Below are positions 1,877-2,796 of a stretch of 64,000 nt of DNA, piece by piece. The stretch comes from an uncultured bacterium. GTDB lineage: Bacteria; Patescibacteriota; Minisyncoccia; Phycocordibacterales; UBA11359. Below the pieces are notes generated by a model. The model saw only the letters and a program-made list of their open reading frames with translations, was not told the origin of the DNA and did no database searches. The DNA lies in assembly GCA_903831815.1 (NCBI GenBank), contig CAIKZC010000005.1, forward strand, positions 69 to 64,068. Direction: 5' to 3'. The number at the start of each line of letters is the position of its first letter. Position 1 is the first letter of the stretch. The position numbers and the translations under genes were made by a program.

Positions 1877-2645
1877 TAGATACCCCAGTAGTCCACGCCC
1901 TAAACGATGTCAACTAGCTTTAGGGAGTATCGACCCTCTCTGAGGCGAAGCTAACGCGATAAGTTGACCGCCTGGGTAGTACGACCGCAAGGTTAAAACT
2001 CAAAGGAATAGACGGGGACTTGCACAAGTAGTGGATTATGTGGCTTACAATTCGATGATAAACGAAGAACCTTACCAGGGTTAGAAATCTAGTTGAAGGC
2101 TAGAGGAAACTTTAGTCGTCCGCAAGGACAATTAGACAGGTGATGCATGGTCGTCGTCAGTTCGTGGTTTGAACTGTTCCCTTAAGTGGGGTAACGAACG
2201 CAACCCTCGTTGGCTGTTACAAGTGTCAGCTGAGACTGCCCCGTGAAATGTGTCTGAACAAGTGTTCGGATATATCTCACGGGGAGGAAGGTGAGGATGA
2301 CGCCAGATCAGCATGTCCCTCTGATACCCTGGGCTGCACACATAATACAATCGCCGCTACAACAGGTTCCGATATCGCAAGATGGAGGCAATCCTTATAA
2401 AAGCGGCGCCAGTTCGGATTGAAGTCTGCAACTCGACTTCATGAAGCCGGAATTACTAGTAATCGCAGGTCAGCTATACTGCGGTGAATACGTTCTCAAG
2501 TCTTGTACTCACCGCCCGTCAACTCAAGGGAGTTGGGAATACCCGAAGTCTGTGCTTGCACAGCCTAAGGTAAGCTCAATGACAGGGAGTAAGTCGTAAC
2601 AAGGCACGGGTAGCGGAAGCTGCTCGTGGAATATTTCAATTGAAA
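1877..2645 (+). rRNA. rrs: 16S rRNA, exon 2 (3' portion)
   Basis: Blocks AAACTCAAAGGAATAGACGGGGAC, GCATGGTCGTCGTCAGTTCGTG, GTACTCACCGCCCGTCA, AAGTCGTAACAAGG, then a helix-45-like CACGGGTAGCGGAAGCTGCTCGTG. No GATCACCTCCTTA tail is recognisable after it; the 3' end is approximate. Confidence 0.85.
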
Positions 2646-2796
2646 CAACGGTATTGTCACTTCGGTGGCACATACCTTATCGAGTCGATATTGTGGGTCT
2701 CGATCGAGTCCATAATGGATTTAGTAGCATCCTAAAAGCTACTGGACGATCAGGAAAGACTGGTAGAACGGAACAAAACAAAGAGTGGTATACAAC

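Follow-up and report, generated by a model that had tools for sequence, protein, structure and literature searches.

A 16S rRNA lacking the anti-Shine-Dalgarno sequence, and start codons abutting promoters, in an uncultured bacterium of the Patescibacteriota

The pairing of a Shine-Dalgarno (SD) motif with the anti-SD sequence of 16S rRNA is the default usually assumed for start-codon finding in bacteria, and few stretches of rRNA are as well conserved as the anti-SD: in almost all bacteria the 16S 3' end reads GAUCACCUCCUUA. The 16S rRNA gene described here, which lacks an anti-SD, lies at the beginning of a stretch of 64,000 nucleotides (nt), positions 69 to 64,068 of contig CAIKZC010000005.1 (GenBank assembly GCA_903831815.1), from an uncultured bacterium of the Patescibacteriota; the whole 64 kb stretch is referred to as the window. 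The closest described systems are found in Parcubacteria, where an anti-SD motif was detected in only 48% of cases, and was mostly missing in the group lacking uL1 (Tsurumaki et al. 2022, RNA 28:1041; PMC9297842). Like these, the window features a 16S 3' end without CCTCCT, and groups with sequences carrying the same helix 45 variant and tail. The published analysis (PMC9297842), however, covers the frequency of the motif and its overlap with uL1, and contains nothing on gene starts, on a replacement tail or on the trailer. The rplK-rplA-rplJ region is not found in the window, and does not precede rpoB, at 40410. The loss of the anti-SD in this clade is already published; its finding in the window is real, and had been correctly interpreted in a previous annotation made from the letters of the window, indicated below as the sequence-only reading. 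Two aspects are possibly new: start codons abutted by promoters, at a distance peaking at 6 nt, and an apparently covarying mini-hairpin in the place of the anti-SD.

For other bacteria without anti-SD, reportedly also treated in Lim 2012, initiation is generally described on leaders that are A-rich or unstructured, not at starts abutted by promoters. A survey reported 128 taxa without anti-SD (Bacteroidetes, Mycoplasma, Carsonella and others), in which SDs are also lacking and no matching variant SD is present (Amin et al. 2018, PMC6107228). The window resembles Chryseobacterium, Elizabethkingia, Riemerella, Blattabacterium, some Mycoplasma, Carsonella and Hodgkinia (PMC6107228) in the loss of both CCUCC and SDs, with no variant SD; these, however, belong to other phyla, and a leaderless signature is not described for them in that work (PMC6107228). 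A fixed, short distance of the -10 box and the absence of SDs from the genes concerned, and perhaps a preference for ATG, are shared with organisms rich in leaderless genes, such as Actinobacteria (Mycobacterium), Deinococcus-Thermus, haloarchaea and the 'group C' of GeneMarkS-2. In leaderless-rich organisms, the canonical anti-SD is retained and SDs continue to serve leadered and internal genes, whereas in the window the anti-SD is gone. In Flavobacteriia, according to what Jha et al. are said to have shown in 2021, the anti-SD is present but sequestered by bS21, bS18 and bS6. There too the SD mechanism is functionally abandoned and the 3' tail is unavailable for pairing to mRNA, but the sequence is kept and masked by proteins, while in the window clade it is mutated and, in part of the clade, what is left of it, UUC(C), may form a cis pairing with a downstream (G)GAA. 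An anti-SD of the Bacteroidetes type, kept but unused, is not what is found in the window, whose 16S contains no anti-SD sequence. Among the open-access papers searched, no report was found tying Parcubacteria or Patescibacteria to leaderless initiation, nor any on a rebuilt tail, which is weak evidence of absence.

The 16S gene is organized as follows:
1..657, + strand: 16S rRNA exon 1, 5' end cut by the window edge (about model position 86); Rfam RF00177, 552 bits
658..1876, + strand: insertion of about 1.2 kb, at about E. coli position 788, corresponding to the gap between two Rfam pieces; contains a LAGLIDADG-type open reading frame (ORF), 1042-1764
1877..2628, + strand: 16S rRNA exon 2, closing with helix 45; matched by RF00177 at 547 bits over model positions 874-1520
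2605..2628, + strand: helix 45, whose 10-bp stem is capped by a GGAA loop, CACGGGUAGC-GGAA-GCUGCUCGUG, in the variant common to the clade without anti-SD
2629..2646, + strand: tail without anti-SD, GAAUAUUUCAAUUGAAAC, directly following helix 45

Two pieces of the window are matched by RF00177, 1-739 (552 bits) and 1973-2628 (547 bits), and the matched core includes helices 44 and 45; in a rerun on 600-2900, exon 2 scores 616 bits. The alignment stops at position 1520 of the 1533 of the model, which is the last base of helix 45. The bases coming next are GAATATTTCAATTGAAAC, and in place of the 13-nt tail GAUCACCUCCUUA with its anti-SD, a tail reading GAAUAUUUCAAUU is found, containing no CCUCC: the absence of the anti-SD from this end of the gene, proposed by the sequence-only reading, is thus borne out by the covariance model. 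The same holds for the absence of a CCUCC further downstream: on the + strand CCTCC is not found before 3640, and neither CTCC nor CCTC occurs in 2600-2900. Matches to GATCACCTCCTT with up to 2 mismatches are 5 in the 64 kb, 4.2 being expected by chance, and none is close to the 16S gene.

Compared with the ancestral GAUCACCUCCUUA, the window tail keeps G1530, A1531, A1534, U1537 and C1538, while the CCUCC core is changed to UUUCA. The tail consensus in the clade is GAWUAWUUC, with U or A in place of C1533, C1535, C1536 and C1539; further decay is seen on other branches, as in GAUCAUUUUUUUU and GAUCAAUUAAAUU. About 180 related 16S genes share the lack of the anti-SD and the conserved tail. The distribution of the two tail states was evaluated on 120 16S 3' ends, collected by scanning metagenome contigs for a helix 44 signature (A1396U) and GTCGTAACAAGG, the tail not being a search condition: about 40% feature the canonical GATCACCTCCTTTCT, about 60% have no CCTCC, and most of the latter contain the helix 45 variant of the window. 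On a neighbour-joining tree, built from the 520 nt that precede helix 45, the two tail states are strongly clustered: 7 changes are required by Fitch parsimony, against 28 with shuffled labels. The nearest neighbour has the same tail state in 82 of 91 cases, and all of the 7 sequences nearest to the window are without anti-SD. A scan of genomes by the clade helix 45 followed by GAWTAWTTC returned at least 119 species genomes; the titles among the matches listed include Kaiserbacteria, Nomurabacteria, Zambryskibacteria, Taylorbacteria, Yonathbacteria, Adlerbacteria, Paceibacterota and Parcubacteria group. In its 3' half, the window 16S reaches an identity of only about 85% with the closest named genome among the matches listed, named relatives ranging from 79 to 85%. 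By 16S comparison, the window is placed within the Parcubacteria/Paceibacteria, in the candidate phyla radiation (CPR).

The use of SDs was evaluated on ORFs of at least 150 amino acids (aa), identified by a longest-ORF caller after masking of rRNA regions; in-frame start codons located deep inside the same ORFs were used as controls. The frequencies observed are the following:
E. coli (49 kb, L245), positive control: SD-like motifs at 42% of first starts, 2% of internal controls
182 loci without anti-SD (541 ORFs): SD-like motifs 6.7%, internal controls 8.1%; strong 5-mer SDs 3.8%, internal controls 3.1%
CPR relatives with anti-SD: SD-like motifs 13.7%, internal controls 8.4%; strong 5-mer SDs 9.8%, internal controls 2.6%

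In the loci lacking the anti-SD, a set of contigs rather than a complete genome, SD motifs are not enriched before genes, within the limits of a crude caller, while they are in relatives that keep it: SD usage tracks the state of the rRNA. SD-independent initiation, suggested by the sequence-only reading for this organism, agrees with these frequencies and with the leaderless-type starts described below, and is lineage-wide, not peculiar to the window. The reading had listed rpoB, rpoC, dnaG, rpoD and tsf as devoid of SDs; this is confirmed for all but rpoC, whose start is ambiguous. SD-like motifs before internal in-frame starts are found in about 8% of cases in CPR loci and 2% in E. coli, base composition being uncontrolled in this comparison; the higher rate may reflect the lack of selection against internal SDs where no anti-SD is available.

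A different signal is found upstream of many genes. Hexamers resembling the -10 box, defined as matching TATAAT in at least 5 of 6 positions, including A2 and T6, are found 5-10 nt before the start in 31% of window ORFs, and in 1.8% of internal control starts, in keeping with the TATAAT-like boxes that had been noticed before native genes. The more demanding pattern TGnTAnnnT is present at the same distance at 18 candidate starts among 61 window ORFs, and at 0.5% of internal controls. The distance is sharply defined in the loci without anti-SD: the 3' end of the hexamer falls exactly 6 nt before the start in 56 of 539 ORFs, against about 8 for each other distance, except 7 and 8 nt, featuring 19 and 28 ORFs. 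The base profile upstream of starts shows, accordingly, T-12, A-11, T-7 and T at -1. With a -10 box ending 6 nt before the start, transcription would begin at the first nucleotide of the start codon. Among 111 boxes abutting starts, 46% have a TGn extension (TGnTAnnnT), about 6% being expected by chance, and ATG is used by 86% of the abutted starts, against 71% of the others, start calls being crude; rnhB starts with GTG. The same test found no -10 boxes at these distances in E. coli. Promoters abutting starts have poor -35 boxes, at least 4 matches out of 6 being found in 19% of them and in 15% of controls.

Twelve genes of the window have a -10 box located 6-9 nt upstream of the start:
27567..27575, - strand: dnaE, TATAAT with no TGn extension, 6 nt before ATG (27560); PHP domain from residue 7
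28460..28468, + strand: rnhB, extended -10 TGCTATAAT, 6 nt before GTG (28475)
32822..32830, + strand: smc, extended -10 TGCTATATT, 6 nt before ATG (32837)
37279..37287, - strand: rnr, extended -10 TGGTATAGT, 7 nt before ATG (37271); TTGACA -35 box
37727..37735, + strand: rpsP, extended -10 TGTTAGTAT, 7 nt before ATG (37743); TTGACC 17 nt upstream
51126..51134, + strand: UvrD/AddA-like helicase gene, extended -10 TGATATACT, 6 nt before ATG (51141)
6025..6033, + strand: rpsB, extended -10 TGCTAAAAT, 8 nt before ATG (6042)
4646..4654, + strand: rpmE, extended -10 TGATAAAGT, 9 nt before ATG (4664); Pfam Ribosomal_L31 on the matching gene of sister contigs
22443..22451, - strand: thrS, extended -10 TGCTAATAT, 7 nt before ATG (22435)
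56024..56032, - strand: RNase H-like gene, extended -10 TGCTATAAT, 8 nt before ATG (56015)
57273..57281, - strand: hisS, extended -10 TGTTAAAAT, 9 nt before ATG (57263)
9561..9569, - strand: unannotated ORF 8885-9553, extended -10 TGATAAATT, 7 nt before ATG (9553)

Small corrections concern the gene labels: the gene previously called rpmF is rpmE, coding for L31 (4664-4909), the helicase at 51141-54602 is UvrD/AddA-like, and the real dnaE is located at 24372-27560, on the minus strand. In the promoter-abutted genes of the window Pfam domains begin at residues 2-20, which indicates that the start codons are well placed. When ORFs are roughly split into operons, a good -10 box at 5-10 nt is found for 15 of the 36 window ORFs that come first in a unit. 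Spacing between genes on the same strand is bimodal, either -52 to +36 nt or at least 43 nt; together with the -10 boxes, this fits with first genes being leaderless and the genes behind them being tightly coupled. For rpoB, dnaG, rpoD and tsf neither an SD nor an adjacent promoter is found; they may be either coupled or preceded by A/T-rich leaders.

The reading which we favour, and hold to be quite probable, is that of a 16S of the Parcubacteria type without anti-SD, with SD-independent initiation, leaderless first genes and coupled downstream genes. The CCUCC core would have been lost by point substitution in the ancestor of the clade, from GAUCACCUCCUUA to GAWUAWUUC and following bases. 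With no CCUCC in the 16S tail, the 30S subunit is unable to build an SD helix, and genes are devoid of SDs. The first genes of many units would be transcribed from an extended -10 promoter, the hexamer ending about 6 nt before the start codon, so that the mRNA would begin at the AUG or within a few nt of it; the ribosome, perhaps as 70S, would capture the 5'-terminal AUG directly, in the leaderless style. Downstream genes, located 0-15 nt from the preceding stop or overlapping it, would be translated by termination-reinitiation coupling, and a minority of genes would have A/T-rich leaders without SD.

Some points weigh against this reading. The term "leaderless" is here derived solely from promoter geometry, and gene calls come from a crude longest-ORF rule. 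The -10 signature is not specific to the loss, a weaker form of it being found in the CPR relatives with an anti-SD (14.7%, compared to 2.6% of controls); leaderless starts may, accordingly, predate the loss of the anti-SD, and may have made it tolerable. In the genome scan, relatives were chosen by the first 9 nt of their tail. The window covers 64 kb of the genome, and another rRNA operon, endowed with an anti-SD, may exist elsewhere, although this is unlikely; CPR bacteria usually have one rRNA operon. Finally, five window ORFs feature strong, well-spaced SDs, which the model leaves unexplained, and for one of them, 3843-4514, the homologues in two relatives keep a sigma-70-like promoter, a leader of about 80 nt and a GGAG located 7-8 nt before the ATG.

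A very large uncultured clade without anti-SD, which seems to rely on 5'-end start codons and coupling, is a natural test of the dispensability of the SD and of leaderless initiation as a general bacterial strategy. In these genomes, gene callers rewarding SDs will misplace starts, and the annotation rule defining the 16S 3' end as helix 45 plus 13 nt with CCUCC fails. Expression across hosts, to or from Parcubacteria, will need redesigned 5' ends.

Initiation might also be independent of SDs, but mainly of the type described for Bacteroidetes: the 30S subunit would load on unstructured, A-rich leaders, leaderless mRNAs would be a minor component, and the -10 boxes would just produce very short leaders. 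This is compatible with the lack of a good -10 box at 5-10 nt in at least half of the ORFs that come first in a unit, and with the distances of 8-9 nt observed for rpsB, rpmE and hisS, which would generate leaders of 1-3 nt; the gene at 57399 has a TATAAT as far as 12 nt upstream. A is also enriched at -11 to -4, but this enrichment coincides with the positions of the -10 box. The exact 6-nt peak, a pyrimidine at -1 and the recurrent TGn extension fit, instead, with transcription starting on the A of the ATG, and we consider this alternative improbable.

An altered but working anti-SD, paired to a co-evolved complementary motif in the mRNAs, would account for the conservation across the clade of the first 9 nt of the tail (GAWUAWUUC), and for the UUCC retained in some relatives, which could pair with GGAA. 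Such a variant pairing was searched for and rejected: duplex energies of the native tail with positions -22 to -2 of window genes are the same as those of shuffled tails (z = -0.24), and no better than those obtained within gene interiors. In addition, for genes devoid of a -10 box, the k-mers found enriched in upstream sequence by an unbiased search all contain TAA, are A/T-rich or resemble a -10 box; none is purine-rich. Earlier surveys had found no matching variant pairs (PMC6107228), and this explanation appears very improbable.

The tail may nevertheless contain a structure of its own:
2634..2645, + strand: mini-hairpin or palindrome UUUC-AAUU-GAAA, present in the minimum-free-energy fold, not in the centroid

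In a set of unique tails not selected on the tail itself, a hairpin of 4 or more bp is found at this site in 67% of cases, against 33 +/- 6% for shuffled tails (maximum 50% across 300 shuffles). The stem occurs as UUUC-AAUU-GAAA (window), UUCC-AAUU-GGAA, UUCA-AUU-UGAA, CUC-AAA-GAG and UCC-AAUC-GGA, and its types differ through double changes that preserve pairing (UUCA/UGAA, UUCC/GGAA, UUUC/GAAA, CUC/GAG). The test is a custom count against shuffles, with a table of stem types, performed on related sequences with kinship ignored; MAFFT alignments of the tails are ungapped, leaving the 3' arm out of register between classes of different loop length. A small covarying hairpin after the remnant tail in part of the clade is thus suggested, thermodynamically weak and drawn from sequences related to each other. 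It can tentatively be proposed that, in one large clade of Parcubacteria, the loss of the anti-SD is accompanied by a wholesale reliance on leaderless mRNAs, produced from extended -10 promoters abutting the start codon, and that the tail has been rebuilt and not simply degraded, UUC(C) pairing in cis with a downstream (G)GAA to form a conserved mini-hairpin; taken as a whole, we regard this proposal as rather doubtful. If contained in the mature rRNA, the position of whose 3' end is presumed, the mini-hairpin could lie where the SD/anti-SD duplex is normally formed, near h26 and h28, or fix and protect the new 3' end. If true, the clade would be the first among bacteria to have replaced the SD mechanism at both the rRNA and the mRNA level.

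Downstream of the tail, the following elements are found:
2650..2676, + strand: stable trailer hairpin with a UUCG loop, predicted by folding; in relatives, a stable hairpin of different sequence is found at the equivalent position
2684..2689, + strand: conserved trailer motif (A)GTCGAT; most of 16 relatives have it 45-70 nt downstream of helix 45
2767..2775, + strand: AACGGAACA, putative 3' strand of the pre-16S leader-trailer processing stem, from motif conservation
2797..2835, + strand: predicted intrinsic terminator, closing the 16S transcription unit, from folding

The 210 nt located 3' of helix 45 form a chain of hairpins (z = -7.6 against shuffles), with a strong terminator at its end. 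The motif AACGGAACA is found 103-227 nt after helix 45 in 56 loci without anti-SD, and in none of 42 loci bearing it; its complement, TGTTCCGTT, closely precedes the 16S 5' end in 15 relatives for which upstream sequence is available. The proposed pairing is drawn from relatives, the window being devoid of the 16S 5' end, and 16S 5' ends are placed by Rfam coordinates. The trailer layout is conserved as a series of mini-hairpin, variable stable hairpin, (A)GTCGAT and AACGGAACA; no Rfam family is matched by the trailer elements. With a leader-trailer processing stem in the trailer, no room is left for a hidden 3' exon. A downstream exon carrying CCUCC, or a second intron, was looked for and rejected: pattern matches are at chance level, no Rfam intron match is found 3' of 2628, and a permissive Rfam scan of 600-2900 is empty after 2641, but for a match with E = 0.22. 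The tail is identical over at least 40 nt in L001 and L002, obtained from the same species in other samples and independently assembled. The strong Rfam score, the motif of the leader-trailer stem, the structured trailer and the terminator make the 16S gene look functional. That the missing anti-SD results from a misassembly after helix 45, a 16S pseudogene, a second intron or a split gene with a distal CCUCC exon is hardly credible: the gene does contain one insertion of 1.2 kb already, and the evidence covers 64 kb of genome without the 16S 5' end, but the tail is identical on contigs from other samples, about 180 related genes share its state and conservation, the strand of the processing stem and the terminator come next, ordered as expected, and anti-SD-like sequences in the 64 kb are not above chance.

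The five SD-bearing ORFs of the window are located as follows:
2928..3635, - strand
3843..4514, + strand
22644..23291, within the cluster 22644-24179
27839..28375
50582..50956, - strand

Their GC content at third codon positions (GC3) is 0.11 above that of their neighbours (p = 3e-4), and the shift recurs across the loci without anti-SD (p = 6e-6); it could be partly trivial, G-rich motifs being likelier in GC-richer DNA. The sequence-only reading had described them as GC-rich cassettes standing out from the native genes: as a group of SD-bearing, GC3-shifted ORFs they are real, while they are not demonstrably foreign, at least one belonging to a conserved Patescibacteria family. All but 3843-4514 have SDs of the AGGAGG type, and a GC3 of 0.46-0.51, compared to about 0.38 for neighbours. 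None of the five SD-bearing ORFs has a match in Pfam or PHROG; the sole PHROG match, weak and with no assigned function, falls on 63678-63965. ORF 3843-4514 codes for a member of an orphan family of 223 aa, for which 13 homologues were found, with identities of 44-70%; the only one with a named source is a hypothetical protein of the Patescibacteria group. The GC content of the family is 0.53-0.63, irrespective of that of the host (L246/L247, 6001-6648; L248, 6001-6663): in two relatives, the homologue has a GC content of 0.63, within loci of 0.46 and 0.61, respectively. In the window (region 3636-4514), the gene has a consensus promoter, TTGACA-16-TGaTATAAT, at 3730-3757, followed by a leader of about 80 nt in which the conserved GGAG precedes the ATG. 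A recent import from a phage or another phylum finds no support for this gene, in view of the conserved Patescibacteria family, its own high GC content and the leadered GGAG start; as a conserved gene of the lineage, it is not an obvious import. The N-terminus of the protein, MGMTQSLKPEMSLRQTLKAEQRQEM, may resemble region I of sigma-54.

Some features concern the rest of the 16S gene. In the window the 16S is an unlinked unit with its own terminator, as it is in relatives L059, L066, L143, L161, L173, L202, L225, L238, L244 and others: no match to the large subunit rRNA is found by Rfam in the whole window, nor does a 23S follow the 16S in 18 relatives. The exon 1 boundary reads ...GCGAATGGGAT|caatctgg, and the insertion point, GGAT|TAGATACCC, falls within the 785-806 region of 16S. 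The insertion 658-1876 is also present in the sister contig L124. Its flanks give sub-threshold Rfam matches to group I introns (649-1122 and 1603-1801, E about 3e-6), and its ORF, 1042-1764, codes for a LAGLIDADG-type protein of 240 aa, with a faint precomputed match to Pfam LAGLIDADG_3. In L147 the 16S contains a group I intron scoring above the Rfam threshold (3060-4211), and in L151 a match to a group II intron domain is found (3870-3982), indicating that 16S insertions in the clade are varied in type and site. Sites of universal primers and of decoding are changed at 2504-2520, where GTACTCACCGCCCGTCA is found instead of GTACACACCGCCCGTCA (A1396U), and the 530 loop, at 386-407 of the window, reads GTGCCAGCAGCAGCGGTAATAC instead of ...GCCGCGG...

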